NCBI RefSeq assembly: GCF_050320075.1
Contig: NZ_CP190018.1
DNA from: Escherichia coli
GTDB taxonomy: Bacteria > Pseudomonadota > Gammaproteobacteria > Enterobacterales > Enterobacteriaceae
Length of the DNA stretch: 64,000 nucleotides
Direction: 5' to 3' (one strand)
Part shown: positions 1,047 through 18,675 of the stretch, piece by piece
Layout: the number at the start of each line of letters is the position of its first letter
How positions within the stretch are numbered: the first letter of the stretch is position 1
Notes under the pieces: model-generated
What the model saw: only the letters and a program-made list of their open reading frames with translations
Database searches by the model: none
Told to the model about the DNA's origin: nothing
Translations under genes and position numbers: made by a program

Positions 1047-3023
1047 ATGCAGCTTAATCATATCGTTAAAAGTCTGCTAATAACGGGATTATTCACCACC
1101 AGTTCTTTACCTCTCCTCGCGGCGGAAGCTCCTAAAGACGCCACCGCAGCCACGCAACAAGCAAACAATTTACTCTACAACCAGTTGCCGTTTGCCGATA
1201 ACACTGACTTTACTGATGCCCATAAAGGTTTTATTGCCCCTATCCCTCAAGACGTGATTAAGGGCGAACAAGGGAATGTTATCTGGGATCCACAACATTA
1301 CGCTTTTATCAAAGAAGGCGATAAAGCCCCTGATACGGTGAATCCGAGTTTATGGCGTCAGGCGCAACTGATAAATATCAGCGGGTTATTCGAAGTAACT
1401 GAAGGTGTCTATCAGATTCGCAATCTCGATCTATCAAATATGACCATCATTGAAGGCAAAGAGGGTATTACCGTCGTTGATCCCCTTGTTTCAGCAGAAA
1501 CAGCCAAAGTGGGTATGGATCTCTATTACAAAAATCGCGGCAAAAAACCGGTAGTGGCGGTTATCTATACACACAGTCATGTCGATCACTACGGTGGTGT
1601 TCGTGGCGTAATTGATGAAGCTGACGTTAAATCAGGCAAAGTTAAAATCTATGCGCCAGCCGGATTTTTGGAGGAAGCCGTTTCCGAAAACATCATGGCT
1701 GGCAATGTTATGAGCCGACGAGCCAGTTATATGTATGGCAACTTATTGAAACCTGATGTTAAAGGCCAGGTGGGGGCTGGACTGGGAACGACTACTTCAG
1801 CAGGAACAGTCACGTTGATTGCTCCTACTAACTACATCACCAAAACCGGACAAATAGAAACTATTGACGGGTTGACTTATGATTTCCTGATGGCGCCAGG
1901 TTCTGAAGCGCCTTCTGAAATGCTGTGGTTTATTGAAGAAAAGAAACTGATCGAAACCGCTGAAGATGTCACGCACACCCTTCATAACACCTATTCGCTG
2001 CGTGGGGCTAAAATTCGCCAACCGCTGCCGTGGTCAAAATATATTAATGAAGCTCTCAATTTGTGGGGTGATAAAGCCGAGATTATTCTCGCTCAACATC
2101 ACTGGCCAACCTGGGGCAACGATAACGTGGTCAAACTGCTTAAAAGCCAGCGTGATTTGTATCGTTACATCAATGATCAAACTCTGCGCATGGCTAATCA
2201 AGGGATGACCCGTGATGAAATTGCCGCAAACTTTAAACTGCCCTCTTCACTGGCTAACACCTGGGCGAATCGCGGCTATTACGGTTCGGTAAGTCATGAC
2301 GTGAAAGCAACTTACGTGCTTTATCTCGGCTGGTTTGATGGTAACCCCGCGACGCTTGATGAACTGCCGCCAGAAGAAGGCGCAAAAAAATTCGTCGAGT
2401 ATATGGGCGGTGCTGATGCCATTTTACAGAAAGCCACACAGGATTATGACCAGGGTAATTTCCGCTGGGTTGCCCAAGTTGTTAGTAAGGTGGTGTTTGC
2501 CGATCCAAACAACCAGGCAGCGAGAGATCTGGAAGCTGATGCGCTTGAGCAGTTAGGCTATCAGGCTGAATCTGGGCCGTGGCGTAATTTCTATCTCACT
2601 GGTGCACAGGAATTGCGTAATGGCGTACAAAAATTACCAACACCAAATACTGCCAGCCCAGACACCGTGCGTGCGATGACGCCGGAGATGTTCTTTGATT
2701 ATCTTGCCGTCCATATTAATGGTGAGAAAGCGGCAGATGCCAAAACCGTGTTGAATTTCGATTTTGGTGAAGATGGCGGCACCTATAAAGTGGAGCTTGA
2801 AAATGGTGTTCTCAATCATACCGCTGGTGTAGAGGCTTCGGATGCTGATGCCACTATCACTCTGTCTCGTGATGTATTGAACAAAATTGTACTGAAAGAA
2901 GAGACGCTGAAAGAAGCCACGGCCAAAGGAGATGTCAAAATTACTGGCAATGAGGAAAAACTCAACGAGCTGTTAGGTTATATGGATAATTTTGAATTTT
3001 GGTTCAATATAGTGACACCATAA
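1047..3023 (+). CDS. alkyl/aryl-sulfatase, metallo-beta-lactamase fold (YjcS/BDS1-like), with N-terminal signal peptide
   Basis: 658 aa; signal peptide MQLNHIVKSLLITGLFTTSSLPLLAAEA; HSHVDHYGG metal-binding motif; GGAG Shine-Dalgarno upstream. Confidence 0.8.
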   Translation: MQLNHIVKSLLITGLFTTSSLPLLAAEAPKDATAATQQANNLLYNQLPFADNTDFTDAHKGFIAPIPQDVIKGEQGNVIWDPQHYAFIKEGDKAPDTVNPSLWRQAQLINISGLFEVTEGVYQIRNLDLSNMTIIEGKEGITVVDPLVSAETAKVGMDLYYKNRGKKPVVAVIYTHSHVDHYGGVRGVIDEADVKSGKVKIYAPAGFLEEAVSENIMAGNVMSRRASYMYGNLLKPDVKGQVGAGLGTTTSAGTVTLIAPTNYITKTGQIETIDGLTYDFLMAPGSEAPSEMLWFIEEKKLIETAEDVTHTLHNTYSLRGAKIRQPLPWSKYINEALNLWGDKAEIILAQHHWPTWGNDNVVKLLKSQRDLYRYINDQTLRMANQGMTRDEIAANFKLPSSLANTWANRGYYGSVSHDVKATYVLYLGWFDGNPATLDELPPEEGAKKFVEYMGGADAILQKATQDYDQGNFRWVAQVVSKVVFADPNNQAARDLEADALEQLGYQAESGPWRNFYLTGAQELRNGVQKLPTPNTASPDTVRAMTPEMFFDYLAVHINGEKAADAKTVLNFDFGEDGGTYKVELENGVLNHTAGVEASDADATITLSRDVLNKIVLKEETLKEATAKGDVKITGNEEKLNELLGYMDNFEFWFNIVTP

Positions 3024-3035
3024 ATTTACTGCATA

Positions 3036-3062
3036 CCGGGCAGGTATCCTGCCCTTTTTTGG
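3036..3062 (+). terminator. rho-independent terminator after the sulfatase gene
   Basis: GC hairpin GGGCAGG-TATC-CTGCCC followed by a T run. Confidence 0.5.
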
Positions 3063-3069
3063 TTAAAAA

Positions 3070-4167
3070 ATGGCTGAACGAAGAAAAACTCATCACTCAT
3101 GGAAAACCCGCCGCGATATGGTTATTCGCGGCATGACGATTAGTTTGCCATGGTTTGCTTTTATCAATGTCAGTTTTGCATTGATAATTTTGCTGCGCCG
3201 TGTTCTGTTTAATGACCTTACTCCACCCTGGTTAAATGAAAAAAGCCTTATACATTCTATTGATATATCTGCAACGGGTATTCTGCTGATTTGCAGTGGT
3301 TTACTACTCATCCCTCGGCAAAAAACATTACCTATCCAGGTGCTATTAGTTGCCCTGAGCCTGCTATGGTCATGGTGTAGTTATCACTTTATTGCGTACT
3401 GGACGCTGCAGTTTGCTTATCCACTATGTGTATTATTAATGCTTAGTGGCGTTGTCGCACTTTATTTCCATACCCCATCATTGCTCGCATTTGTCATTCC
3501 CTTATGGTTCACCACTCCAATAGCGAGTCTTATGCTTAATCAACAGATCAATATTCATTTTGCTGTTGTATGGTGTATTTTTTCACTGGCGCTATATGGT
3601 GGGCGACTCATTTTGTTACGTTGGTTTGAAGAAGCATGGGTACAAAACAGTTATAACAACCAGTTAATTAATCGCCTTGATGCATTAGCACATCGTGATC
3701 CTTTAACTGGGATAGCAAACCGACGTGCAATGAACAGTATCTTACACGACGCGATGGATAACGGCGGGTCATTTGCTCTTATTATGCTGGATGTCGATTT
3801 TTTTAAACGTTACAACGACACTTACGGGCATCCTGCTGGGGATCGTTGTCTAATACAAGTTGCCGACGCTCTACAGCGTTCAACTCGCCAGTCGGAGGAT
3901 GTTGTTGTCCGTTATGGTGGCGAAGAGTTTGCCATCATACTTTTTAATGCAACATTGCCGGAAGCAGAGACGGTAGCAGCCAGAGTGAAGCAAGAACTTA
4001 AACTGGCAGCTATCCCACATCAGGCATCTGCTGTTAATGCATTTGTTACGGTTAGTCAGGGGATTACCTGTTCTGCTCCCGCAAAAACGGCTGAACAAAT
4101 TATTTCAGATGCCGACGCTGCGTTATACCGGGCGAAAGAAAGTGGGCGAAATCGATGGGCTTTATAA
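3070..4167 (+). CDS. membrane-anchored diguanylate cyclase (GGDEF domain, GGEEF active-site motif); start codon uncertain
   Basis: Hydrophobic multi-helix N-terminal half; C-terminal GGDEF domain with RYGGEEF and DxLTG-like motifs. Confidence 0.8.
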   Translation: MAERRKTHHSWKTRRDMVIRGMTISLPWFAFINVSFALIILLRRVLFNDLTPPWLNEKSLIHSIDISATGILLICSGLLLIPRQKTLPIQVLLVALSLLWSWCSYHFIAYWTLQFAYPLCVLLMLSGVVALYFHTPSLLAFVIPLWFTTPIASLMLNQQINIHFAVVWCIFSLALYGGRLILLRWFEEAWVQNSYNNQLINRLDALAHRDPLTGIANRRAMNSILHDAMDNGGSFALIMLDVDFFKRYNDTYGHPAGDRCLIQVADALQRSTRQSEDVVVRYGGEEFAIILFNATLPEAETVAARVKQELKLAAIPHQASAVNAFVTVSQGITCSAPAKTAEQIISDADAALYRAKESGRNRWAL

Positions 4168-4240
4168 GCATTAGGGGACTGGACAGATTACGTCTCTCCT
4201 CGCTTAACAAGGGCTGACGGAGGGTAATAATTGTCTATAG

Positions 4241-4792
4241 CTATCTTCTTAGCGATGTCTTTCTGGTATCACATTGGATCGGTGCAATTATTTTTCCTTT
4301 AATACCCATTATGTTAAGAAATTCAGAAACAGCTGTAATCTCATTGTTTTTTTCATTCGTCTTGATCTTCCAAGGAATCTGACTGTGCATTATTGAGAAC
4401 ACACTAATAACGTGAATCGCTCCCTTGCGACGACTCTTGTCATAAGAGTACCGGAGCGTTTTTCCATCAATTGCAATGACGTCTTTATCATCTGAAGAAT
4501 GGCAGTCAAGCATCCAGTTAATAAAGCACTCATAAAATTTTTCAGGACTGATACAGGATACAACTCTGGCAATGGTATCGTGAACAGGAATACCATTATC
4601 AAAATCACCATATTGCTTCAAAAAATCGAGATGTGTTTCCCCAAAATCCTCTATATCTTCCCAGCCTTCTGCACCCGAAATAACGGCACAAATAGTCAAC
4701 AGTAGAATATCCGATAATTTATGTTCCACTTTCCAGGCTTGTCTGTAATCGGGGATAATAGAAATATGTCCCATCAATTTTTTAAGTTCCAT
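4241..4792 (-). pseudogene. H-repeat-associated (ISAs1-family transposase-like) gene remnant, N-terminal ~183 codons only
   Basis: Aligns to the first half of the 378-codon H-rpt frame at 10493..11629, then diverges and stops. Confidence 0.7.
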
Positions 4793-4939
4793 TTTGTTCT
4801 CCTTAATTATGTAAGGAGTATTTGATCATGTATACGCAATAAAAAACAGCTTCAGGTAATGAGGAATATCTCAATTGTTAAACATAAAATGCGAATTGTC
4901 TAGTACAAAAAAGCAGCGTTACGTGATCTTTCCGTGGAT

Positions 4940-5065
4940 CGTCAAATTGTTCGAGAGAAAATACCAACATGATGGATTTTACTGTAAAAGTAATGTCGTA
5001 GTTTAAAAACTCATCATCCGGTAAAGCCTTGTGGGGCGTGGGCTTTCATACTTTTACCCTGATGT
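4940..5065 (-). repeat. H-rpt element upstream-end repeat, copy A
   Basis: About 120 bp closely similar to 11680..11810, each just upstream of an H-rpt reading frame. Confidence 0.6.
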
Positions 5066-5377
5066 CTGCTATACGCCGGACACCCTTTACGTAGCATTCG
5101 GAATTCACCCGTAAATTTATCACGGCGGTATCACGAAACCTCCGGTTCTGATGCCGCTTAGGACTAACGACACGTCAACACAGGTTCGGGTTTATTCATT
5201 TCACTGTATCTCATATAATCTGAGCACTCCCCCTGCGCTCGCTACTATGACTCTTTACCACAGCAACCGGGGTTGTTTGGGATCGGCTTTCAACAGCAGA
5301 TCCCGGTGGCTATTGCAAGTAAGTCTACTTTCCACATCAGTGTTACTGACACAGAAAATAATGAGTTATGATCCTTG

Positions 5378-5863
5378 TCATATTTTTAATATAGCCCCAT
5401 GAGCTATAGGATCAAAACCTTCTAACCATGAGGTGTTTTTATCGAATAATGCATCTGTTATATTTATATCGCCATATCTATCACATAATAAATTAGCGCC
5501 ACATAAGTCAGCACCAGAAAAATTTGAATCTTTAACGTCTGCATTGCAAAAGGTTGAATTAGTTAATATAGCACCCTCAAAGTTTGCACCTATTGACCTT
5601 GAATTACTAAAGTCACTTCCAGTGAAATCTGAGTTATTAAGAATAGCGTTCATCAGAGCCGCATTGCGAAAGACAGCATTTCTAGTTGATGTATGTTGAA
5701 TCATTACATTTCTTAAATGGGAATTTTCAAATTTCGCCCCATCAAGACAATAACCATTGAGGATGGCACGATGTAGATCCATCCCGCTAAAATCATATCC
5801 AGCAAGAGTGGTACTATCTATATCAAGAAATTTATTGGTTATTAAAAACGCGATTCTTATCAT
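5378..5863 (-). CDS. pentapeptide-repeat protein, putative immunity protein for the adjacent Rhs C-terminal toxin
   Basis: 161 aa with tandem A(D/N)LxG/F-type pentapeptide repeats; its start overlaps the Rhs stop by 4 bp (ATGA); AT-rich. Confidence 0.75.
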
Positions 5864-8800
5864 CTATTCCCCCAATCATCTAACTCCGGAAAAATTTGGC
5901 TAAACGGATATAGTGGTGCCGATAATGGACGCGTACCTGGCCGCTCAGGAGGAAGTTTATCACATAACAGACCCGCAACCATCCTGTGATTACCATTAAC
6001 AATCACATTCCCATCCATATCAACCGGTGGTGCTCCACTACCATCTTCCAGCATTTGTACGTAGTGAGCTACTACGGGTACTGAGACTTTTTGTTGTACT
6101 GTCAACAAGGGACTGTTGGCCACAACCATCCTGATGTTTTCAGGTGTCGTAGGTAAACATTTAGTCTTCTCTTGACTAAAGGTATCATCCCACAATTTTG
6201 TTAAACCCATCACTGCCTGTTGTCTGTATTTATCCATGGGGTCAGCAATCAACCAAGATGGACCTGACTGCTCTATGGAATCTTCTCCGGAGAGACCCAA
6301 CGGATCTATCTTAGTAGTTGGATTCAATGGATACTGATACAGGTTCCATGCACCTCTTAGCCCAATGGGATCCTGGGTGATATACCGCCCCTGCAACGGG
6401 TCATAGTACCGGTTGCGGTTATAGTACAGCCCCGACTCCTCATCATACTGCTGCCCCGGCAGACGGTACGGCTGTTGCAGTTGCTGCGCGCTGGTTTCGC
6501 CCAGCAGGTTTCCCCACTCGTCATACTCCCCCTGCCACGCCGTTTCCCCTTCCGGGCTGATGAGCGCCTGCGGCAGCCCCCGGTGGTCGCAGTGGTAAAG
6601 ATGAAGTGTCCTCTCCGGGATGTATTCCGCCTCCATCTGGTTTTTCATCTGTTCCGCCGTCAGCCCGCACTGCTGAAGCCATGCCTCACTCTCCGCACTC
6701 ACCGCACCCGCGCGCAGTTCCCGCTCCAGCCTCCCCAGCATCACCGACAGCTCCGCCGGTAGCGTCACCCCCGTGTCCTCCTGCAACACCTCCGCCAGAC
6801 TCCGGTGCCGCGCCTTCGCCTGTTCACCATTCTCTGTTTCGATTCTGATGAGCGGCGTGAAGCTCCCCGGCTGGTATACCGTCTGGATACGCGTGGTGCC
6901 GGTCTGTACCGTCGTCAGCCTGTCACCGTCCCACCCGTACCAGGTCTCCTCCGGTTTACGCGACAGCGACATCCACCCCGTCAGGTCACGCTCCCGCCGC
7001 CACACCCGTTTCCCCGTCCGGCGGCCCAGCGGGTCATAGAGGTAGCGGCTCTCCACCTGTGGCTCGCCGTGCTGTATCCGCGTGTAGAACACCAGGCGGT
7101 GCTGGCTGTCGTAATGGTAGTGGTGCGTCCGCTCGTCGTGCATCCGTATCACCCCTTCCGGGATACGGTCCGTCTTCTCCGCCAGCCTGCCGTATTCATC
7201 GTAGCGGTAGACATAGTGCGCATCTTCCGTGATGCGGTTATCCGGCCACGCCGTGAAGGTGCTGTCCGGGTGCAGTTCCGGGTCCGGCAGCCGGTTTCCT
7301 GCCGGGTCCGTCGCATACGGGATATCGATATCCAGGTTCGCCGCCGTGGTGTGAACGCCCGTCAGTCTTCCCGTGTCGCTGTAACGGTACTTCCGGCTCT
7401 CCTGCGGGCCGCTGATGCGCACCAGTTGCCCGTTATCGTTCCACGTATACTCACGGTCAAGCTGCGGAAGGTTCAGGTGCCTGCTCCGGAGCTGCCCTGT
7501 GAGGGTGTACGCCGTGGCCTGTTCGTACCCCGCTGTACTGCCCGCCCCGCCGAAGCTGCGGGCCGTCTCACGGTGCAGCCGGTCCCGCGTGTACTCGACC
7601 AGCGGCGTTCCGCCCAGCTTCATCCCCGCAAGATAACCGCTGCCATACGTCAGCCACTCCACCGGCGGCAGACCGTCCGGCTCCTGACGGGTCGCCAGCC
7701 CCTGTTCGCTGTAGACGTGCCTCGTCTCATGCTCCCACAGCATCTCCCCCGTCTCCTGGTTCTCCACCGTCTGCCGTTCGCCCGTCAGGCGGCCTTTATC
7801 GTCATAGCCGTAGTGGACCGCCACACGGTGGCCTTCGCTCAGGTGGCTGATTTCTGTCAGCCAGCCGTGGTCGTCATACTGCCACTGCTCCGCCGGGTCG
7901 CCGTTCACCGTCCGGTGCGTGATGCGCCCGGCGTCATCGTAGTACCACTGCGTGACCTGCCCCTCATCCTCGCTGCGGATGAGCTGCCCTGTGGCGCTGT
8001 ACCGGTAACGCTGTGTCCTGCCGTCAAAGCCGCGCTGCTCCGTCAGCCTGTCCACCGGGTCATACCGGAACGTGGACTGGCTGCCGTTCTCGTTGGTCAG
8101 CACGGTGATGCGCCCGGCGGCGTCATACTCCATGCTGCGCGTCAGTCCGCCCTGCGTGGTGCTGACGGCCTTTCCCCACGCATCATACTGTGTCTCACTC
8201 CGGCTGCCGTTCGGGGCAATGATAGCGGTGAGGTCGCCTGCGGCGCTGTACTCATAACGGGTTTCACGTCCCTGCGCATCCTTCTGACTGACCAGTTGAC
8301 CACGCGGGTTATAACTGCTGTAAGTGCTGATGCCTTCCTCCCGGTGAACCGCCGTCCTCTGACCGTACCGGTCGTATTCATACCGCGTCGTGTACCCTGA
8401 ACAGTCCGTAAATGCCTGAAGCTGACCGTACCGGTTTCGCGTTATTCTCCGCCTCACCCCGGTTCCGTCTTCCACCGCACAGGGCAGGCCACTGCGGGAA
8501 GAATCATAAAACCAGCGCGTAATGTTACCGTTGCGCGAGACCTCTTCCGCCAGCCTGCCCTGACGGTCATATTTCCGGCTGCGGCGCAGCCCGTCCGGGT
8601 ACGTCACTGACGTCAGTTGCAACTGGTTGTTGTAACCATACCGTACCGTCCTGCCGTCCGGCAGTATCACTGAAGTCAGCTTTCCCGACGCCATATGCAG
8701 CCGGTACTCCGTCCGCCGTCCCGCCGCATCCGTCTGCGCCTTCAGCCTCCCCGCCTCATCATACTCGCTGCGGGTGATGCTCCCGTCCCCATACTCCTTC

Positions 8801-10071
8801 TTCACCACCCGCTTCAGGCCGCCCTCGCCCTCCGTGTACAGCACCTCCCGCCGGTTCAGGCTGTCCGTGATGGTCACGCGGTCCTGCCCGTACTCAAAGC
8901 GGTAGTCCAGCCCCTCCGGGTTGACCTGCTCCGTCACCCGACCGGTATCATCATACCGGTAGCGGCTCTCCGGCCTCCCCGCATAATGGTGCGCCACCAT
9001 CCGCCCGGCGTGCTCCGCATCATAAGTAAACCCGCGCACCTGCGTCCCGCTGCGGTCATACACCGCCCGCAGTTCTCCGCTGGCCGTGTACGTGTAGCGC
9101 GCCAGCGGCGCAGTCGGCAGTTCATCCGGGTATGCCGGGTCGTGTGTCAGCCATACCGCCTCCAGCCGGATACCGTTATCGGCACCGTACTCTGTACCGG
9201 TGGGCAGCGTGTCGGGGAAAAACTGAGAAGAGGAAACAGAACGGGGACTGGCCGGAGAAGATAAAGAAGACTCGCGCTGTTTACGGAAGGCTTTCGCCCG
9301 CTGCGCCTGTGTGGTCAGCGCCAGATGAAAACGGCGGCCCGCGCCGTCCGTCACCCCCGTCACCGCGCCCGCCGCTTCCCCCTCTGCCGCCCGGTGGAAG
9401 GCCAGCGTCCGCCCGAAGCCGTCCACCACGCCCGTCAGCACCCGGTATGCGGGCGGCTCCGGCGGCAGCACCTCGTCCGCCTCCGGCACCCGCTCCGGCC
9501 AGCCGAGTATCCACCACGGCCCCTGAAGGCTGTTTGTCGCCAGGTACACATGCGGGCTTAAGCGGAGACTCTCCGGCAGCACCTGCCAGAGCGCGCTTAG
9601 CGGCTGCGAACTGTGCTGCTCCGCCACCCCGCCCCTTGCCAGCCAGAACGACTCGCTGCGGCTGTAGCTTATCTCGCCGGGAAACAGCGGCTCAAAGTGA
9701 ATGCTCCTGCCGCCACTGTCGTTGAGTATCAGTTCCCGCTCATGAACCTGTAAGCGGATATCGAAGGGCGCTTTCCAGCCGGGACCAAACACCCCCACCG
9801 GCGCGGGTGTCCTGGTCCGGTAGCTGCTGTAGGCGCGGGAAAGAATAAACGGCAACGGGCCGGGCAGCGCAAGATCCGTCTCGCCCGGCAGCACCTTCGC
9901 ACCCAGTAGCGGGTTCACCGGGTTACCCTTCTGCTCCTCCACCGGGCTGTTGGGACACACCGAGCAGGCCACTCCCGTCGGCGCACCTATCAGCACCCCC
10001 GCTGAACCCTGCACAATATCCAGTCCCTTGCGGGTCATATCGCCCTGTCGCGCCGCCGGTTTTCCGCTCAT
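5860..10071 (-). CDS. full-length Rhs family protein: PAAR-like N-terminus, YD-repeat core, DPLGL boundary, variable C-terminal toxin domain
   Basis: 1403 aa; conserved Rhs N-terminus [13 protein letters not shown]; many YD/RYxYD repeats; PxxxxDPLGL motif; GC-rich core. Confidence 0.9.
5863..6291 (-). other. Rhs C-terminal variable toxin domain (~143 aa after DPLGL), family not recognised
   Basis: Sequence after the DPLGL motif is unrelated to the conserved core and lower in GC. Confidence 0.6.
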
Positions 10072-10492
10072 GGTTTATTCCTTAAATTATTTATGGTTTT
10101 ATTCTGAGTGCAATCCATACTGATTCATAACCAGTGAATAAGATTTCCCCGAATAATCTATATAAATTAGCGAAGTCCTCTTCACTAATTAACCGTAAAA
10201 TCCCGTACCAATGAAATATAAAAATAACCACCCACACAAATTTATTGCAAATATTATTTATTATTGTATATACATCATTCACTGAACGTTCTCAAACTGC
10301 ATACCTTAGAACCATCAATTAAAGCCACAACAAAAAAAATCGATTACTTTATGTCGCATGACAAATATGAATTACATATTAATCAACCTTAAAAACAATC
10401 ATCTCTTATAATTAACAGCATACCATGAGAAACACAAAATCAATTTACCATGCATACCAGGAGCATAATTAACCTCTCACCGCAGGGCGAAA

Positions 10493-11629
10493 TCATGAAG
10501 GCCCGCAGCCAGCAAGGATTAGAGAAAGGTATTCATTCTTACGTCCTGCCCGCTTTTGCTTGCGTTTAATACCCGCTTTAAAGCTATTCTCTGCGGTCAG
10601 TAAATTCATCGCGATATGTCGACAAACTGCCAGATTTTCTCCCGCTTCTCCACGAACAATCTGGCATTCATCTTCCCGCATCCCCATATCAAGTCGCCAG
10701 TGCAGTTGATTTTCTACCGACCAGTGTGCTCGTGTTGCTTCCAGGAGTTCTTTCGCCGTAAGCGTCACCGAACTTATGTAGTAGCGAAGAATACACTTCT
10801 CTGATTTCACCGCTGTTTCTCCTTCCTGTCTGCTCGCCAGCACTATTCCTATCGTGCTCAGCTCTGACCATTCATAAGCTAAATCACCCAGAGCGGTTAA
10901 ATCATGGCTCACAATGCAGCATCGTGTATCTTCCCGTCCATGCCCTTTTTCCTGCGTGCTGTAACTGTCATACCTCTCACCCAGCCACATTGTCGGCGAG
11001 TACCCGTTATCAAACGCCTCCGCTAATTTTCCCTGATTTCCTTTCAGCGCCAGCAGGTAACCGGCTTTCTTTTTCAGAATTTCACGGGCGATTATATGCT
11101 GGCAACCCATTGCATCCAGCGTGACCAGACACCCTTTTAATTCCAGCAACTGGAGCCGTTCCGGGATCGCCGTTATCTCATTCGATTTTGCCCCTGTTTT
11201 CACCTGCCCCAAAACCAGACGATTTTCTGCGCTAAAAGCACTGACCCTATGGATCACGGCATTACGTTTCGATTTATCGTAAGTACCCCGTAATGACTTA
11301 CCATCAATCGCCACAACAGAGCCTTCAGACAACGTGTGACAGTCCTTCATCTACTGGATAAAAAGGGGCTGTAATTGTTTTGCTGAAATCATTCCCATCA
11401 CTCGGGCAATCGTGTGATGGGAGGGGGTGCCATTTTCAAAATCACCATACAGGCGTAACCATTCCAGATGCTCCTCACCAAAATCAGCAATTTCTTCCCA
11501 TCCTTCAGCGCCACCGATAATGGCGGTGATCGTCAGAAAAAGGATATCCGCCAGGCTGTAACTGGTTTTCCAGGACTGGCGATAATCGTGAATAATTGAA
11601 ATTTGATCCAAAAGGCTTAGTCCGTTCAT
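10493..11629 (-). pseudogene. H-repeat-associated protein (ISAs1-family transposase-like), 378 codons interrupted by an in-frame TAG at 11351..11353
   Basis: ORFs 11351..11629 and 10493..11350 are contiguous in one frame, separated only by TAG; the fragment at 4241..4792 has W at that position. Confidence 0.7.
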
Positions 11630-11679
11630 GGTGTGCTATCCATCAAAAAGAAAGGATAAGATCACACTGAAATAAGATG

Positions 11680-11810
11680 GTCAAATTGATCGAAAAAAAA
11701 GATCAACATGATGGGTTTTACGATAAAAGTAATGTCGCGATTTAAAAATTCATCATTCACCAAAGTCTTGTGGGGCGCGGGCTTTCATGCTTTTTCCCTG
11801 ATACGCTACC
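11680..11810 (-). repeat. H-rpt element upstream-end repeat, copy B
   Basis: Closely similar to 4940..5065. Confidence 0.6.
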
Positions 11811-12040
11811 GCTCTGCCCTGATAACATGATCTGCACGGCGCTATCATATCGACATATTTCTCTACATGCGAAAGGATGTTTTATTTTCGGATTATATTA
11901 AATTGATATTTCATATAAAAAACGAGATTACATAAATCATATAAATAATTGTACCAACTTTAATTACCATTCATAGCAAACAAATGGATGTCCAGTTAAC
12001 TACGCCAGTGATTTATTAACATTAATCTCCGGCATTATTG

Positions 12041-12647
12041 TTAAATAATGGCATTCCTTTTTAGTATTTCTTGTAACGTTGGTATCGGACATACAGCATC
12101 AGCAATCGCACTGATATTCGCGGCATTATCTTGAAACCATTCATGCCCCGGTCCCCATATGCGCATAACGCAGAGATAAGGGTAGCTGATCGCCAAACGC
12201 ATAAGGTTCAGCAGTGAGCTACGAATTCAACCAGATATAAAACGATTTTCGATATTCAATAACATTCTTCTTTAACTGTTCGGGTGCGTCAGGAGCCCAA
12301 CGCTCAGGGTAATCGGCGAAAGTGAATGTTGGATAGACATTAGCAACCAGCCAGACCAATAGCCGTTGAAACTGCTGACGTTCGGCGCGCCCAACCGGTG
12401 GCGCAAGGTCCGGGCGACGATCGAGAACCATCAATGCAATCGCCGCTGTCTCCGTCATAATCTCGTCATTTTCCAGCGCCAGTGTCGGAATCTGACACAA
12501 CGGGTTCAGGGTTTTCAATAACTCGCGTGAGGTTCCCTCGTGGTCAAAACCACTGACATCAACGAACTGATAAGGAATATCAGCCAGTGTTAGCATCAGC
12601 TCACTGATTGTAGAGCCCCATCCGGGTACGCCATACACCTTAATCAT
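12041..12647 (-). pseudogene. yncG: glutathione S-transferase homologue, disrupted by an in-frame TAG (12219..12221) and a downstream frameshift
   Basis: 142-aa N-terminal GST-like ORF ends at TAG; the GST C-terminal remnant CVMRIWGPGHEWFQDNAANISAIADAV continues in another frame to a stop near 12041. Confidence 0.6.
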
Positions 12648-12913
12648 ATGCCCCTCACAATCTTTTAAAGATTAAGTGTAGGACAGTACACAGGTTAACC
12701 AGCAAAAGGATTTGTCATTTTTTCGTCAGTTGTATTATTCCCCTTCAGGATTGTAAGGGGATGTTTTGCATCGTTTATCGATAACGGGTAGGATGCTGCG
12801 CCGATAGTTTTATACCCATAAAGAATAATGGTGATAACTATCATCGCCAGGATGAATAAACATTGTTCATGGCAACTTATATGACTTTTTCATTAAAGCA
12901 ATCAGGGAGAGCA

Positions 12914-14413
12914 ATGAGTAAACACGACACCGACACTTCAGATCAACACGCCGCGAAACGCCGCTGGCTTAATGCCCACGAAGAGGGGTATCACAAAGCG
13001 ATGGGCAATCGCCAGGTACAGATGATCGCCATTGGCGGCGCGATTGGTACGGGTTTGTTTTTAGGCGCGGGAGCCCGACTGCAAATGGCGGGGCCAGCAC
13101 TGGCACTGGTCTATTTGATCTGCGGCCTGTTTTCATTTTTTATTCTGCGTGCATTGGGTGAGCTGGTGTTACACCGCCCTTCCAGTGGCAGTTTTGTCTC
13201 TTATGCCCGTGAGTTTTTAGGAGAGAAAGCCGCTTACGTTGCAGGCTGGATGTACTTCATCAACTGGGCGATGACGGGGATTGTCGATATTACCGCCGTC
13301 GCTCTGTATATGCATTACTGGGGTGCGTTTGGCGGCGTGCCGCAGTGGGTCTTTGCGCTCGCTGCGCTGACCATCGTTGGCACCATGAATATGATCGGTG
13401 TGAAATGGTTTGCCGAGATGGAGTTCTGGTTTGCGCTTATTAAAGTGCTCGCCATTGTTACCTTTTTGGTCGTGGGTACAGTGTTCCTCGGTAGTGGTCA
13501 GCCGCTGGATGGCAACACCACTGGTTTTCATTTAATTACCGATAACGGCGGCTTCTTCCCCCACGGTTTGCTGCCTGCGCTGGTGTTGATTCAGGGCGTA
13601 GTGTTTGCTTTTGCCTCCATTGAAATGGTGGGTACAGCTGCCGGAGAATGTAAAGATCCGCAGACCATGGTGCCTAAAGCCATTAACAGTGTGATTTGGC
13701 GTATTGGCCTGTTTTACGTCGGCTCCGTGGTGTTGCTGGTTATGTTATTGCCGTGGAGCGCATATCAGGCGGGGCAAAGTCCGTTCGTGACGTTTTTCTC
13801 TAAACTGGGTGTGCCATATATCGGCAGCATTATGAACATTGTGGTGCTGACCGCTGCCCTCTCCAGCCTGAACTCAGGTCTGTACTGCACCGGACGTATT
13901 CTGCGCTCAATGGCGATGGGCGGTTCCGCACCGAGTTTTATGGCGAAAATGAGTCGTCAGCATGTGCCGTATGCCGGGATTCTGGCGACACTGGTTGTGT
14001 ATGTCGTCGGCGTATTCCTCAACTATCTGGTGCCGTCGCGCGTATTTGAGATTGTGTTGAACTTCGCGTCGCTGGGAATTATCGCCTCATGGGCGTTTAT
14101 CATCGTGTGCCAGATGCGCCTGCGTAAAGCGATTAAAGAAGGCAAAGCCGCGGATGTCAGTTTTAAACTGCCTGGCGCGCCCTTCACTTCCTGGCTGACA
14201 TTACTGTTTTTGCTGAGCGTCCTGGTGCTGATGGCGTTCGATTACCCGAACGGGACTTATACCATCGCGGCGCTGCCGATTATCGGTATTCTGCTGGTTA
14301 TAGGCTGGTTTGGTGTGCGCAAACGCGTTGCTGAAATTCACAGCACTGCGCCAGTCGTCGAGGAAGATGAAGAACAACAGGAAATTGTGTTTAAGCCTGA
14401 AACGGCGAGTTAA
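12914..14413 (+). CDS. ansP: L-asparagine permease (APC family amino-acid transporter)
   Basis: 499 aa from MSKHDTDTSDQ with GGGAGAG Shine-Dalgarno; polytopic membrane protein. Confidence 0.9.
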   Translation: MSKHDTDTSDQHAAKRRWLNAHEEGYHKAMGNRQVQMIAIGGAIGTGLFLGAGARLQMAGPALALVYLICGLFSFFILRALGELVLHRPSSGSFVSYAREFLGEKAAYVAGWMYFINWAMTGIVDITAVALYMHYWGAFGGVPQWVFALAALTIVGTMNMIGVKWFAEMEFWFALIKVLAIVTFLVVGTVFLGSGQPLDGNTTGFHLITDNGGFFPHGLLPALVLIQGVVFAFASIEMVGTAAGECKDPQTMVPKAINSVIWRIGLFYVGSVVLLVMLLPWSAYQAGQSPFVTFFSKLGVPYIGSIMNIVVLTAALSSLNSGLYCTGRILRSMAMGGSAPSFMAKMSRQHVPYAGILATLVVYVVGVFLNYLVPSRVFEIVLNFASLGIIASWAFIIVCQMRLRKAIKEGKAADVSFKLPGAPFTSWLTLLFLLSVLVLMAFDYPNGTYTIAALPIIGILLVIGWFGVRKRVAEIHSTAPVVEEDEEQQEIVFKPETAS

Positions 14414-14525
14414 TTGCAAAATTGCCCGGCTACGTGCCGGGCAAATTCAAATTACTGACGAAGGTGCCGGATACGGCGTGATAAAAGTCAGGCAAGTCTC
14501 ACCGTTTTCACCCTCGCCATATCTA

Positions 14526-15587
14526 TTACAGCGCAATACGAATCACATCATCCGGCTGGGTTGCTTCCTGCTGTTTAGTGGATTTTTGTTTCACACTGAC
14601 ATACAGCGTTTTACCATCGGCAGACAGCGCCAGGCTGTTCGGATGAGTCGGCGTATCGAACGTTTTCACCACTTTATAGCTTTTCGCGTCAATCACACTG
14701 ACTTTACCTGCCTGACGATGCGTTACGTAGGCTTCATTACGCGCCGGGTTAAACAGCACAGCCAGTGATTCCGGTGCCGCAACCTTCGCCAGAATATTGC
14801 CATTACGGGTATCGACCACTAACACTTCTGCGGCTTTAGAATCGGTGATAAATGCACGCTGCCTGGCGGTATCAAGGCTAATGTTGATAAAGAAGTGCTC
14901 TTTGCCGTCATCCAGCAGCTTTTTACGGCTGAGGATTTTATTGTCGGCGGTGTCGATGGTAATCAATTCGCCGTCAGCGTTAGTGGTGTAAAGACGTTTG
15001 CCTTTGCTATCCAGCGCCAGACCGGTACTCATTTTACCGGTGTTCTGGATGGCGGTTTTCAGTTTGATATTCTCGCCATCAACGACCCAAATCACGCTCT
15101 CTTTACCAATACCACTGATGTAAACGGTGTTCGTGGCATCATCAGCTACCAGCTCACGCGGTTGCAGCGGGCGCACCTCTTCCGTGCGCTTACGATCATC
15201 CAGCACCAGACGGCCTTTCACTTCGCCCGTTTTGGCATCTATCGCCGTGACCGCGCTGTTTACAGTGTTACCAAACCACAACGTCTGAGTCGTGTTATTG
15301 ATGGTGGCACCAAACGGCTTGAGATCGTTATGGATCGCCTGCGTCACTTCCAGAGTAACCGGATCAAGACGATAAACCACGCCGCCTTTATCCAGTTTGC
15401 GGCTTTGCGAAGTGGCGAGCCACAGCGCGTTCTCCTGCTGGCTATAAGCCATTTCGTAGGCACCTTTACCTACCGCTTTACGCAGCATTTCTTCTGCAGC
15501 CTGCGTACTGAATGATGAAGCAACAAGCAATGAACCTAACAGTAATGAACCACGCAGGCGCGATGAAAACAGATGACGTAAATGCAT
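14526..15587 (-). CDS. yncE: periplasmic beta-propeller protein YncE
   Basis: 353 aa with signal peptide; position between ansP and yncD. Confidence 0.85.
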   Translation of the reverse strand: MHLRHLFSSRLRGSLLLGSLLVASSFSTQAAEEMLRKAVGKGAYEMAYSQQENALWLATSQSRKLDKGGVVYRLDPVTLEVTQAIHNDLKPFGATINNTTQTLWFGNTVNSAVTAIDAKTGEVKGRLVLDDRKRTEEVRPLQPRELVADDATNTVYISGIGKESVIWVVDGENIKLKTAIQNTGKMSTGLALDSKGKRLYTTNADGELITIDTADNKILSRKKLLDDGKEHFFINISLDTARQRAFITDSKAAEVLVVDTRNGNILAKVAAPESLAVLFNPARNEAYVTHRQAGKVSVIDAKSYKVVKTFDTPTHPNSLALSADGKTLYVSVKQKSTKQQEATQPDDVIRIAL

Positions 15588-15828
15588 GACGACTCCCTTT
15601 GATGAACCGATATTTTTGCTGCTTCACAATGCTTCGCTAAGCGTAATCATCGTTACGCTCTTGTTATAAATGGGAATGGTAATCATTATTTTCTCAAATG
15701 TGGAGCATTTCTTGCCGTTACGACTACAATTTTCTCAATTACTTAACGTATCGTGCCGTTTCGTTTTCCATATATTTACAATTTTATTACCATGGCGGCG
15801 TTTTCCCATTCTTAACTTGGCTTTTTTC

Positions 15829-17931
15829 ATGAAGATTTTTTCCGTCCGACAGACCGTTTTGCCCGCACTGCTTGTCCTTTCCCCCGTTGTTTTTGCCGCT
15901 GATGAACAGACCATGATTGTCAGTGCCGCACCGCAGGTGGTTTCAGAACTGGATACCCCAGCAGCCGTGAGCGTGGTGGATGGCGAGGAGATGCGCCTGG
16001 CAACACCGCGCATTAACTTGTCCGAATCACTGACCAGCGTGCCTGGTTTGCAGGTACAAAACCGGCAGAACTATGCGCAAGATTTACAGCTGTCGATTCG
16101 CGGATTTGGCTCCCGCTCCACTTACGGAATTCGCGGTATTCGCCTGTATGTGGACGGTATTCCCGCCACCATGCCCGACGGACAAGGGCAAACATCCAAC
16201 ATCGATTTAAGCAGTGTACAAAATGTGGAAGTGCTGCGCGGCCCCTTCTCTGCTCTGTATGGCAACGCGTCTGGCGGTGTAATGAATGTCATCACCCAGA
16301 CCGGACAACAGCCACCAACCATTGAAGCCAGTAGTTACTACGGCAGTTTTGGCAGCTGGCGCTATGGGCTGAAAGCAACAGGCGCAATGGGCGACGGCAC
16401 TCAGCCTGGCGATGTCGATTACACCGTCTCAACCACGCGCTTTACGACCCACGGCTATCGTGATCATAGTGGCGCACAGAAAAATTTAGCCAATGCCAAA
16501 CTGGGCGTACGCATTGATGACGCCAGCAAATTAAGCCTGATTTTCAATAGTGTGGATATCAAAGCAGATGACCCAGGTGGGCTAACCGAAGCAGAATGGA
16601 AGGCGAATCCGCAACAAGCGCCACGCGCTGAACAGTACGACACGCGAAAAACCATCAAGCAAACTCAGGCTGGGTTGCGCTATGAACGTAGCCTGAGCGC
16701 ACAAGATGATATGAGTGTGATGATGTATGCCGGGGAGCGAGAAACGACCCAGTACCAGTCAATCCCGATGGCACCACAACTTAACCCGTCGCATGCGGGC
16801 GGCGTGATTACTCTGCAACGCCATTATCAGGGGATAGACAGCCGCTGGACACACCGTGGCGAGCTGGGCGTTCCGCTCACGTTCACTACCGGCCTGAACT
16901 ACGAAAACATGAGTGAAAATCGCAAAGGCTACAATAACTTCCGCCTGAATAGCGGCGTGCCGGAATACGGGCAAAAAGGTGAGTTGCGCCGTGACGAACG
17001 CAATCTGATGTGGAACGTCGATCCCTATTTGCAGACACAGTGGCAGCTGAGCGAAAAACTGTCGCTGGATGCTGGCGTGCGCTACAGCTCCGTATGGTTT
17101 GATTCCAACGACCATTACGTTACTTCGGGTAACGGCGATGACAGCGGTGATGCCAGTTATCACAAATGGCTACCTGCCGGTTCGTTAAAATATGCAATGA
17201 CCGATGCCTGGAATATCTATCTGGCAGCCGGGCGAGGTTTTGAAACGCCGACGATTAATGAGCTGTCTTATCGTGCTGACGGTCAAAGCGGTATGAACTT
17301 TGGTTTAAAACCATCCACCAACGATACAATTGAGATCGGCAGTAAAACGCGTATTGGTGATGGGCTGCTTAGTCTCGCATTGTTCCAGACCGACACCGAT
17401 GATGAAATTGTAGTCGATAGCAGTAGCGGTGGGCGTACGACTTACAAAAATGCCGGAAAGACCCGTCGTCAAGGCGCTGAGCTGGCATGGGATCAACGTT
17501 TCGCGGGAGATTTTCGTGTAAAAGCGTCCTGGACCTGGCTCGATGCGACCTATCGCAGCAATGTTTGCAATGAACAGGATTGTAACGGTAATCGGATGCC
17601 AGGGATCGCCCGTAATATGGGCTTTGCGTCGATAGGTTATGTACCGGAGGATGGCTGGTATGCAGGTACGGAAGCGCGTTATATGGGCGATATTATGGCA
17701 GATGATGAAAATACGGCCAAAGCGCCGTCTTATACTCTCGTCGGCTTATTCACCGGGTATAAATACAATTACCACAATTTAACTGTGGATTTATTTGGTC
17801 GTGTCGATAATTTATTCGATAAAGAATACGTTGGTTCTGTCATTGTCAATGAGTCAAACGGGCGATATTACGAACCTGCGCCCGGGCGAAATTATGGTGT
17901 CGGCATGAATATTGCATGGCGATTTGAGTAA
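15829..17931 (+). CDS. yncD: TonB-dependent outer-membrane receptor
   Basis: 700 aa from MKIFSVRQ; signal peptide; C-terminal aromatic residue (…AWRFE). Confidence 0.85.
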   Translation: MKIFSVRQTVLPALLVLSPVVFAADEQTMIVSAAPQVVSELDTPAAVSVVDGEEMRLATPRINLSESLTSVPGLQVQNRQNYAQDLQLSIRGFGSRSTYGIRGIRLYVDGIPATMPDGQGQTSNIDLSSVQNVEVLRGPFSALYGNASGGVMNVITQTGQQPPTIEASSYYGSFGSWRYGLKATGAMGDGTQPGDVDYTVSTTRFTTHGYRDHSGAQKNLANAKLGVRIDDASKLSLIFNSVDIKADDPGGLTEAEWKANPQQAPRAEQYDTRKTIKQTQAGLRYERSLSAQDDMSVMMYAGERETTQYQSIPMAPQLNPSHAGGVITLQRHYQGIDSRWTHRGELGVPLTFTTGLNYENMSENRKGYNNFRLNSGVPEYGQKGELRRDERNLMWNVDPYLQTQWQLSEKLSLDAGVRYSSVWFDSNDHYVTSGNGDDSGDASYHKWLPAGSLKYAMTDAWNIYLAAGRGFETPTINELSYRADGQSGMNFGLKPSTNDTIEIGSKTRIGDGLLSLALFQTDTDDEIVVDSSSGGRTTYKNAGKTRRQGAELAWDQRFAGDFRVKASWTWLDATYRSNVCNEQDCNGNRMPGIARNMGFASIGYVPEDGWYAGTEARYMGDIMADDENTAKAPSYTLVGLFTGYKYNYHNLTVDLFGRVDNLFDKEYVGSVIVNESNGRYYEPAPGRNYGVGMNIAWRFE

Positions 17932-17964
17932 TTACCTTGATGCCCGGTATTTGCCGGGCATTTA

Positions 17965-18675
17965 ATTGTGCACAGAAAACCCCCAGCTAGGCTGGGGGTT
18001 CCGGAAAGCTTTCAGCTTTAAGCCAGTTATTAAAACCCCTTTTGATTTGTTAAAACACCTTGCGGTCTGGCAACTGCAAGTGTCAAACAAGAAATCAAAA
18101 GGGGGTCCCAATGGGGAACGAAAAGAGCTTAGCGCACACCCGATGGAACTGTAAATATCACATAGTTTTTGCGCCAAAATACCGAAGACAGGTGTTCTAC
18201 AGAGAGAAGCGTAGAGCAATAGGCAGTATTTTGAGAAAGCTGTGTGAGTGGAAAAGTGTACGGATTCTGGAAGCTGAATGCTGTGCAGATCATATCCATA
18301 TGCTTGTGGAGATCCCGCCCAAAATGAGCGTATCCGGCTTTATGGGATATCTGAAAGGGAAAAGCAGTCTGATGCTTTACGAGCAGTTTGGTGATTTGAA
18401 ATTCAAATACAGGAACAGGGAGTTCTGGTGCAGAGGGTACTACGTCGATACGGTGGGTAAGAACACGGCGAAGATACAGGATTACATAAAGCACCAGCTT
18501 GAAGAGGATAAAATGGGAGAGCAGTTATCGATTCCCTATCCGGGCAGCCCGTTTACGGGCCGTAAGTAACGAAGTTGGATGCAAATGTCAGATCGTGTGC
18601 GCCTGTTAGGGCGCGGCTGGTAAGAGAGCCTTATAGGCGCATTTGAAAAACCTCCGGCTATGCCGGAGGATATTT
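17965..18675 (+). mobile_element. IS200-like insertion sequence (IS200/IS605 family), boundaries approximate
   Basis: Left-end hairpin CCCCCAGCTAGGCTGGGGG just upstream of a 152-aa HUH/Y1 transposase; about 0.7 kb. Confidence 0.6.
18111..18569 (+). CDS. tnpA: IS200 transposase TnpA (Y1 HUH transposase, 152 aa)
   Basis: MGNEKSLAHTRWNCKYHIVFAPKYRR with HxH motif (ADHIHML) and catalytic Tyr region. Confidence 0.85.
   Translation: MGNEKSLAHTRWNCKYHIVFAPKYRRQVFYREKRRAIGSILRKLCEWKSVRILEAECCADHIHMLVEIPPKMSVSGFMGYLKGKSSLMLYEQFGDLKFKYRNREFWCRGYYVDTVGKNTAKIQDYIKHQLEEDKMGEQLSIPYPGSPFTGRK

Follow-up and report, generated by a model that had tools for sequence, protein, structure and literature searches.

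The RhsE locus (yncG-pptA) in this Escherichia coli genome raises the question of why an rhs gene should lie between two transposase remnants that are each accompanied by a similar sequence of about 120 bp, and of whether that sequence is an end common to both remnants through which the gene might be deleted or inverted. The initial annotation recognized the remnants as two degenerate H-rpt/ISAs1 ORFs in the same orientation, and both are indeed minus-strand remnants of ISAs1-family transposases. The reading that we favor, with a probability of roughly 85%, is that the repeated sequence represents the left ends of ISAs1-family insertion sequences (ISs), the right-hand one on a dead, complete IS and the left-hand one on a stump interrupted by ISEc1. 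The following features lie in the window, which is the whole 64-kb stretch of DNA that was analyzed:

4242..4936, minus strand: ISEc1 (H-rpt) fragment, nt 1-695 of 1291, with IRL CACGGAAAGATCACG at 4936-4922
4937..5063, minus strand: left repeat copy, a solo left-end stump whose nt 1-125 are window positions 5061 down to 4937
5066..5309, minus strand: piece from the interior of a group II intron, with the pentapeptide-repeat gene on one side and the solo IS end on the other
5378..5863, minus strand: pentapeptide-repeat protein, 161 aa (Pfam Pentapeptide, E = 1.4e-19)
5860..10071, minus strand: rhs, full length, 1403 aa (Pfam RHS_repeat in 10 stretches, DUF6531, RHS)
10483..11800, minus strand: ISAs1-family IS of 1318 bp, here called type 2 (non-ISEc1 lineage), with both terminal inverted repeats (CAGGG...CCCTG)
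10493-11629, minus strand: type-2 transposase pseudogene, made up of ORFs 11351-11629 and 10493-11350 (378 codons), with TAG at 11351-11353
11676..11802, minus strand: right repeat copy, type-2 IS nt 1-125 plus two flanking bases
11801..11837, minus strand: conserved backbone segment (…GTGCAGATCATGTTATCAGGG….GCGGTAGCGTAT), where the variable island starts

The similarity of the two segments is real, and the positions first given for them (4940-5065 and 11680-11810) were correct to within a few bases. A repeat search of positions 3000-13500 returned a single long direct repeat, formed by 4937-5063 and 11676-11802, and BLAST detected no third copy in the whole window. The copies align without gaps over 127 nt with 106 identities (83%, E = 4e-34), a value that rules out chance similarity, and the longest unbroken identical run between them is 14 nt. 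In both places the repeat lies upstream of the ATG, at a distance of 46 nt on the right and 145 nt on the left, and its 3′ end carries a conserved TTGAC flanked by GATC sites.

On the right, the repeat is the end of a recognizable element. The IRL of this type-2 IS (11800 down to ~11767) and its IRR (10483-10516) both begin with CAGGG and match at 26 of their first 34 positions. When the TAG is read as Trp, the transposase matches NF033564 with E = 7e-116 (386.7 bits, cutoff 70), and the ORF halves match Pfam DDE_Tnp_1 (PF01609) and DDE_Tnp_1_assoc (PF13808). The type of transposase, the inverted repeats and a length within the range of ~1.2-1.5 kb all agree with membership in the ISAs1 family. 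The transposase is not intact, being interrupted by the in-frame TAG, and a target duplication of 8-10 bp is absent from the flanks of the element (GGTAGCGTAT versus CGGTGAGAGG). The ISAs1 assignment stands despite this lost duplication because two relatives (L010 and L012) have 10-bp target duplications, AGGGAAGCAT and TGAACCACCT. Intact relatives were found at seven loci with diverse flanks; they are 1319 bp long, their transposases are 76-83% identical at the amino acid level, and all seven start with CAGGGCAAAAGCATGAAAGCCC, exactly 172 nt 5′ of the ATG. The right repeat copy spans the IRL and the leader as far as the conserved TTGAC and can be aligned with the left ends of the independent relatives L006-L012; beyond it, the sequence continues through the remaining leader to the ATG of the same element. 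On this evidence, the 172-nt leader, including the repeat, is part of the type-2 IS, and the two flanking bases (AT) of the right copy match the left copy by chance.

The right-hand IS has no target duplication, and therefore its arrival here was not a simple transposition; rearrangement followed the insertion of this copy. Among intact relatives, the closest to it (83% amino acid identity) are metagenomic sequences, a search of a plasmid collection returned just distant ISAs1 relatives (~66%), and the NCBI annotation gives the element only a generic family name. In E. coli, the type-2 IS is present in ~146 of 5426 genomes, as one inactivated copy each and always at the RhsE locus.

The left-hand remnant is of a different kind, since the right-hand and left-hand transposases are only 50-52% identical in protein. 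Its ORF (4241-4792, minus strand) retains only the N-terminal DDE_Tnp_1_assoc domain. The fragment is 90.7% identical to K-12 H-rptB over nt 1-696 (L003 7235-7930), starting from the first base of that element, which is 1291 bp when complete (L003 7235-8525); the same size is given for full copies in a table of ISEc1 (PMC6963479). Here, a complete 1291-bp ISEc1 with an IRR is not present, as the fragment stops at nt 695 (window position 4242), and in a paper on ST38 strain 28Eco12 the equivalent of window positions 4290-4936 was annotated as a truncated ISEc1. The boundary with the repeat is exact, with the ISEc1 IRL beginning at 4936 and the stump ending at 4937. The left repeat is set apart from the left ATG by the IRL of ISEc1 itself and a 145-nt leader, and therefore the locus holds three ISAs1 elements rather than two. 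Nor is the 127-nt repeat a part of ISEc1: the copies in K-12, E. coli B, PM06121, XJ6.1 and L005 have unrelated left flanks. The left flanks of about ten copies contain no common ISEc1 target sequence. The segment had been taken for an end shared by both H-rpts, but it belongs only to the right-hand IS lineage and is foreign to ISEc1.

The left ISEc1 fragment is a mosaic, with a switch near nt 480 that is evident from the identity profile and from variable sites. From nt 1 to ~480 it is ordinary ISEc1 (93-98% over nt 1-400), and from nt ~487 to 695 (window ~4450-4242) it is a diverged remnant of 77-81% identity. The diverged part is an older remnant, and the segment at 4242-4373 is 99% common to strain PM06121, where it lies beside the same GGDEF gene. 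The fragment is thus itself a recombinant, with a crossover near nt 480.

No transposase gene follows the left stump, and similarity to the type-2 IS ends at 4937; the left stump, the right copy and the L005 fragment belong to one sub-lineage of this IS. Next to the stump is the intron fragment, which was recognized as Rfam RF01999 (group-II-D1D4-2) at 5202-5310 (48 bits, gathering score 36, E = 1.6e-7), with no further intron model matches in 3900-12400. Strain MFDS1019527 has an intron with an ltrA gene, split by IS2 and located 15 nt inside an ISEc1 IRL, and the fragment matches the 5′ portion of this intron with 85% identity over 244 nt. The homology starts ~95 nt past the GTGTG start of that intron and ends at the IS stump, and positions 5066-5309 contain neither a complete ribozyme (5′ GUGYG, domains V-VI) nor an intron-encoded protein.

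The genes that these remnants enclose form an Rhs module, with RHS repeats, a core that ends in DPxGL, a variable tip and a small downstream gene, the toxin and immunity roles being predicted. The initial annotation referred to an Rhs tip and immunity module. The tip is present, as the last ~143 aa past the DPLGL motif, but it is carried by a full-length rhs of 1403 aa and does not stand alone. It has zero sequence matches in Pfam, NCBIfam and PDB. The pentapeptide-repeat gene lies downstream of rhs and overlaps its stop codon by 4 nt, and from this position and overlap the 161-aa protein is presumed to be the Rhs immunity partner.

The distributions of the elements differ. A sensitive search found the 127-nt sequence in only 145 of 5426 genomes, at both RhsE places and as one more solo fragment; in strain 2020CK-00188, a solo leader fragment lies ~130 nt upstream of a gene pair for a peptidoglycan-binding protein and LprI. 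Within E. coli, the type-2 IS, the stump and the pair of rhs tip and pentapeptide gene are confined to one set of ~145 genomes, in which they occur together. A query with ~310 nt of ISEc1 had matches in 4958 of the 5426 genomes, and ISEc1 copies are present in nearly all E. coli genomes. Exact-pattern searches gave no match to the repeat core in a collection with one genome per species, and none to the stump|ISEc1 junction in representative genomes of 100,044 species.

Variants of the locus show where its parts are joined. In K-12, GF4-3, PM06121 and this window alike, the shared backbone ends at the same segment to within 5 nt, and this endpoint (11801..11837) is independent of what comes after it. 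Several junctions of alternative modules at RhsE coincide exactly with ISAs1 termini. Metagenomic contig L024 carries the junction of intron fragment, stump and ISEc1; beyond it lie a complete ISEc1 and, at the RhsB locus, the yhhJ flank. In contig L021, the junction comes after a vgrG-rhs-pentapeptide gene array in which vgrG is directly upstream of rhs, and the right-hand IS is absent. Target duplications accompany the junction structure in neither contig. The proposal that H-rpt/ISAs1 elements helped to shape the locus gains support from the junctions at ISAs1 termini, the recombinant left H-rpt and the occurrence of the junction at RhsB.

Where the elements begin and end, which families they belong to, that the H-rpt is a mosaic and how the locus varies are all directly observed, and from these observations we infer an order of events that begins with a nested insertion. 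The repeat is the left terminal region of one ISAs1 lineage, consisting of the inverted repeat that starts with CAGGG and ~90 nt of leader up to TTGAC. The right copy is still attached to its own complete, inactivated 1318-bp IS, and all that is left of a second IS, related to the first at 83% identity, is the left copy. ISEc1 probably inserted at nt 125 of this second IS, the remainder of which would have been lost afterwards via recombination between ISEc1 copies. We infer this nested insertion rather than observe it because the part of the interrupted IS that should follow (from nt 126, past an ISEc1 IRR and target duplication) was found nowhere, and it is missing as well from two contigs with a complete ISEc1. 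The distal end of the rhs module is occupied by a nest of three dead mobile elements, namely the stump, the ISEc1 fragment and the intron fragment. The repeats are probably functionless in themselves, and the elements count only as portable homology, with crossovers inside H-rpt moving rhs-tip modules between strains and loci, and crossovers inside the rhs core presumably doing likewise.

Two strains, GMF065 and KE55, suggest an alternative that we consider unlikely but worth entertaining, namely that the two stumps are not inert. In both strains the ISEc1 IRL is joined to the right-hand copy at the identical nucleotide (nt 125), such that the same nt-125|ISEc1-IRL junction occurs on the L-type copy in all carriers and on the R-type copy in these two. 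The R-type leader of GMF065 is 126/127 identical to the leader on the type-2 body in this window; all left copies read CACGG, and the right one of GMF065 reads CAGGG. That the right junction of GMF065 is a recent copy of its left one was rejected, as ~10 of 320 positions differ. A single random ISEc1 insertion does not account for these junctions; either a preference of ISEc1 for nt 125 or homeologous gap repair between the repeats might. The former would amount to a strong liking of ISEc1 for one position in the leader of another ISAs1 lineage, and the latter to natural homeologous repair between 83%-identical 125-nt repeats that lie 6.7 kb apart. If true, either variant would provide a small mechanistic insight into ISAs1 nesting and the remodelling of Rhs loci.

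We see little chance that the region is a composite transposon, in which two direct type-2 IS copies brought rhs and the presumed immunity gene and ISEc1 later truncated one of them. The two ends do belong to one IS sub-lineage and have equal orientation, and their confinement, together with the tip and pentapeptide pair, to ~145 E. coli genomes would be expected. However, there is no target duplication, the outer end of the second copy is gone, and the copies differ by 17%. The outer flank of the right-hand IS is the common island boundary, which is also found in strains without any IS. Moreover, L021 has vgrG-rhs with the downstream stump and no right-hand IS, and L024 has the junction at the RhsB locus.

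Slimmer still is the prospect that the 125-nt leader and ISEc1 constitute one genuine long-form IS of ~1416 bp. The stump terminus and the ISEc1 IRR agree at 29 of 36 positions, the ISEc1 IRL matches its own IRR at just ~11 of 13 bases, and the same junction is present on two diverged leaders. Against this, the junction pattern is missing from the representatives of the 100,044 species, and in all six metagenomic matches to the junction the L-type stump is identical and is preceded by the same intron fragment; the leader-ISEc1 unit has therefore not moved independently. The lack of target duplications in L024 and L021 also argues against such an element, as does the near identity of the GMF065 R-type leader to one that naturally sits on a type-2 body here.

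An equally slight probability attaches to retention of the repeat for a function, as a promoter, a small ORF or a structured RNA acting on downstream genes. The conserved TTGAC between GATC sites and the placement of the solo leader in 2020CK-00188 would fit such a role, but Rfam returned nothing above noise for the repeat (top match RsmY, 15.8 bits versus a gathering score of 57), a promoter scan found zero sites inside either copy, and a short ORF starting ATGAAAGCC varies in length among relatives. The repeat shows no special conservation, as the leader diverges among relatives about as much as the ORF does (71-74% versus 73-77% nucleotide identity).

Efficient RecA-dependent exchange in E. 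coli needs roughly 23-27 bp, and 17% divergence is a strong barrier to it. Least credible of all is the arrangement first proposed, in which both H-rpts are the same kind of element and their ~120-bp common end is a substrate for deleting or inverting rhs: although both ORFs are of the ISAs1 family and equally oriented, the repeat is real, and GMF065 and KE55 hint at an interaction between its copies, the left repeat is separated from the left ATG by the ISEc1 IRL and leader, other ISEc1 copies are without the repeat, the transposases are only 50-52% identical, the longest identical run (14 nt) falls short of that length and the divergence is high, the direct orientation of the repeats makes inversion impossible (allowing deletion or duplication only), and a synthetic query for the predicted rhs-deletion junction revealed no deletion product among 5426 complete genomes, the sole loss of rhs seen (strain U1) being an IS1-associated deletion that retained both repeats.

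Because the repeats are, in the reading that we prefer, the left ends of two old, related ISAs1 elements, what they represent is the usual debris of mobile elements, at a site already known as a hot spot for toxin genes in E. coli, and its importance beyond annotation is small. In this lineage, to which ST38 strain 28Eco12 belongs, the RhsE locus holds three ISAs1 relics and one group II intron relic, and one of these relics is an IS type without a name of its own that is labelled generically in genome annotation. The variants provide concrete cases of H-rpt homology shifting an rhs-tip module between strains and between RhsE and RhsB. They also come with a correction, in that the repeat cannot invert rhs and cannot readily delete it.

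The presence of H-rpts at the ends of Rhs elements is a feature long described, in the Rhs literature of the 1990s. A paper on the genome of E. coli W (PMC3032704) also discusses H-rpt in Rhs elements. Together with its 145-nt leader, the left ORF is ~91% identical to both K-12 H-rptB (yhhI) and H-rptE (ydcC) of the ISAs1 family, and in K-12 RhsE, ydcC occupies the same distal position as the left ISEc1 copy here. In contrast to the K-12 H-rpts, the copy in this window ends at nt 695 and is recombinant with an older remnant, and the 127-nt repeat beside it does not belong to ISEc1. The right-hand element resembles the ISAs1 family (NF033564) in its single DDE transposase with a DDE_Tnp_1_assoc N-terminal domain, its size of ~1.3 kb, its imperfect inverted repeats and the 10-bp duplications of active relatives, but it is a distinct member with 50% protein identity to ISEc1. 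According to PMC3522654, the Rhs IS (ISEc1) is the specific target of the group II introns E.c.I2 and E.c.I9, and the fragment found here is similar in being related to the intron homed in ISEc1 in MFDS1019527. Unlike those introns, it is a 244-nt internal piece without the first ~95 nt, domains V-VI or the reverse transcriptase, and its neighbor is not ISEc1 but a stump from the other IS lineage. Finally, the succession of intron fragment, IS stump, ISEc1 fragment and backbone, in which each element breaks off precisely where the terminus of its successor lies, is in all essentials like the nested or clustered IS remnants known from island borders.

E. coli chromosomes match the window with full identity at the RhsE locus, where the genes run nhoA-yddH-pptA, a sulfatase gene, a GGDEF gene, an H-rpt fragment, a pentapeptide-repeat gene, rhs, an ISAs1 pseudogene, a yncG pseudogene and ansP-yncE-pqqU. 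This 8.3-kb arrangement was found in 143 of 5426 complete genomes, including that of the ST38 strain 28Eco12 (PMC6963479). In this lineage yncG (12043-12650) is annotated by NCBI as a pseudogene with a frameshift and an internal stop, yncH is absent, and 11838-12042 has no K-12 counterpart. The two degenerate H-rpt ORFs that the initial annotation had placed in the same orientation on either side of rhs are both ISAs1-family transposase remnants, as listed here with the genes between them.

4241-4792, minus strand: ISAs1-family transposase remnant, N-terminal domain only
5378-5863, minus strand: pentapeptide-repeat gene, 161 aa, overlapping the rhs stop codon
Between the two transposase remnants: rhs gene, full-length, 1403 aa
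11351-11629 + 10493-11350, minus strand: ISAs1-family transposase pseudogene, a 378-codon gene with TAG at 11351-11353

The similar sequences of ~120 bp described before both ORFs were also confirmed, as a repeat search of 3000-13500 returned one long direct repeat of 127 nt (4937-5063 and 11676-11802; 83%). Its copies match at 106 of 127 positions without gaps (E = 4e-34 against the whole 64-kb window), share no perfect run longer than 14 nt, and lie 46 nt (right) and 145 nt (left) from the ATG; a third copy is absent from the 64-kb window. Both copies are left ends of ISAs1-family insertion sequences (IS): one still belongs to a complete but dead element, and the other is a stump.

The complete element, on the minus strand, is 1318 bp long, starting at 11800 with CAGGGAAAAAGCATGAAAGCCC and ending at 10483 with the inverted sequence, and 26 of the first 34 terminal positions match. 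Its first 125 bases are the right repeat copy, the extra two matching bases (AT) being flank. In E. coli this right-hand IS is known only as a single inactivated copy, and the flanks of the window copy carry no target duplication. Intact transposases with 76-83% identity to its own turned up in a protein search, mostly on IS-sized contigs. Because the same 172-nt leader, starting CAGGGCAAAAGCATGAAAGCCC, precedes the gene in seven loci encoding such transposases, with differing flanks and with 10-bp target duplications in two copies, the leader belongs integrally to a real, mobile IS lineage. The leader is not unusually conserved among relatives (71-74% identical versus 73-77% for the ORF). A third solo leader fragment, covering nt 12-164 with 93% identity to the right copy, occurs in the lateral-flagellar gene cluster of strain 2020CK-00188 (locus L005, 9000-9152), with a peptidoglycan-binding protein gene ~130 nt downstream and then an LprI-family lysozyme-inhibitor gene; several ISEc1-type elements lie in the same region.

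The initial annotation had read the ~120-bp sequence as an end shared by two H-rpts, but the left copy lies outside the H-rpt and belongs to the right-hand lineage. The K-12 ISEc1 element H-rptB is 1291 bp long (7235-8525 of locus L003), with ends CAGGGAAAGATCA… and …CCCTG, and its similarity to the window (90.7%) runs from its first base at 4936 down to 4242. Because this similarity starts at 4936 and the repeat at 4937, the left repeat precedes the H-rpt without being its end. What remains there is a lone 125-nt stump from a second member of the right-hand IS lineage, cut off precisely at the start of an ISEc1 inverted repeat, here CACGGAAAGATCACG. Furthermore, the two transposase types share only 50-52% protein identity, and a query with ~310 nt of ISEc1 matched 4958 of 5426 E. 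coli genomes, versus only 145 of the 5426 complete genomes for the 127-nt sequence. Hence three ISAs1 elements are involved, not two. A nested insertion would place the remainder of the stump's IS (nt 126-1318) after the right inverted repeat of ISEc1, beyond an 8-10-bp repeat of …TTGACGATC.

Downstream of rhs the order is intron fragment, IS stump, ISEc1 fragment and backbone, each truncated at the terminus of the next. The intron fragment is an internal piece of group II type (Rfam RF01999 at 5202-5310, minus strand; 48 bits versus a gathering score of 36), and 5066-5309, between the pentapeptide-repeat gene and the stump, is homologous right up to the stump to an ltrA-carrying intron of strain MFDS1019527. 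In that strain the intron lies 15 nt inside an ISEc1 inverted repeat, and in E. coli B another ISEc1 comes after a 165-nt piece of the intron. According to PMC3522654, the Rhs IS is the homing target of introns E.c.I2 and E.c.I9. Pieces of 57-91 nt related to the window fragment occur in ~2600 E. coli genomes; at the one short-fragment locus inspected, in E. coli B, the piece immediately precedes an ISEc1 left end.

Recombination between the repeats had been proposed to invert or delete rhs. Inversion is excluded because the repeats are direct, and searching 5426 genomes with a sequence constructed to mimic the predicted deletion junction gave no deletion product. With 17% divergence and a longest perfect run of 14 nt, RecA-dependent exchange would not be expected to be efficient, given minimal homology lengths and mismatch-repair barriers. 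The sole rhs loss seen is in strain U1, where window positions 5265-11578 are gone next to an IS1 and both repeats are kept. The IS1-associated loss, at 9323-10090 of locus L014, takes the pentapeptide gene along with rhs; IS1 entered the locus independently in U1 and CUVET16-394, in the latter by simple insertion.

The deletion-junction query did reveal a different junction in strains GMF065 and KE55. Here the right copy (126/127 identical to the right-hand type) gives way at nt 125, the exact position seen in the left stump, to the left inverted repeat of a complete ISEc1, the right inverted repeat of which abuts the right-hand IS at window position 10826; rhs is retained. The junction stretch in GMF065 (locus L018, 10159-11576) is identical in KE55 (L019). 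Alignment ruled out a recent copy of the left junction, and no common target was found among other ISEc1 copies. The junction arose either from an insertion preference or from homeologous gap repair that used the left locus as template.

The proposal that H-rpts shuffle this locus is borne out, with homology as the means. The yncG-side backbone ends at …GCGGTAGCGTAT, within 5 nt, in K-12, GF4-3, PM06121 and the window, regardless of what comes next. In PM06121 a PAAR-VgrG-M35 peptidase module replaces rhs, bordered by a solo 155-nt ISEc1 left end and a complete H-rptE, and the right inverted repeat of H-rptE directly adjoins an old H-rpt remnant that is shared, at 99% identity, with window 4242-4373. 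In K-12, which lacks the sulfatase and GGDEF genes, the same end of H-rptE meets window position 830. In XJ6.1 the right-hand IS is bordered at window 10826 by a complete ISEc1, and a vgrG-rhs module lies upstream. The ISEc1 fragment on the left is itself a mosaic (nt 1-400 are 93-98% identical to ordinary copies, nt ~487-695 77-81% to all of them), which points to a crossover inside H-rpt. The junction of intron fragment, stump and ISEc1 recurs in metagenomic contigs: in one (L024) the next features are a complete ISEc1 and then the RhsB-locus flank with yhhJ, and in another (L021) vgrG, rhs and the pentapeptide gene precede it, without the right-hand IS. From these boundary junctions, the mosaic and the two contigs, we conclude that the rhs-tip module moves between loci and strains with H-rpt as one arm of homology, which speaks against a composite transposon.

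The gene content of the yncG-pptA interval, a variable island, differs by strain: rhs, PAAR-VgrG-M35 peptidase or unrelated genes (L013, the PM06121 locus, 11293-18103; window 11801-11837). Its start always falls within 5 nt of one and the same backbone base, and the boundary backbone sequence (ATCAGGGCAGAGCGG…) is itself similar to an ISAs1 terminus.

For the Rhs C-terminal tip (~143 aa after DPLGL; 5860-6290 region, minus strand), sequence searches of Pfam, NCBIfam and PDB gave no match. On visual inspection, a 15-residue stretch resembles a ParB/sulfiredoxin-type motif, and the pentapeptide-repeat partner (5378-5863, minus strand) gives weak Qnr/MfpA-like matches. Our guess is that a DNA-directed toxin, blocked by a DNA-mimic partner, would fit. 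A second locus, present in this lineage and ~130 other E. coli genomes and annotated with two adjacent pentapeptide-repeat genes, shows 95% identity to a 320-nt stretch that runs from the end of the rhs tip into the pentapeptide gene; this locus may be an orphan immunity array.

The arrangement is a cluster of nested, dead mobile elements at a known hot spot of recombination, and the right-hand IS appears to be an as yet unnamed representative of a known IS family. The movement of rhs-tip modules through H-rpt homology is the classical picture of Rhs elements.
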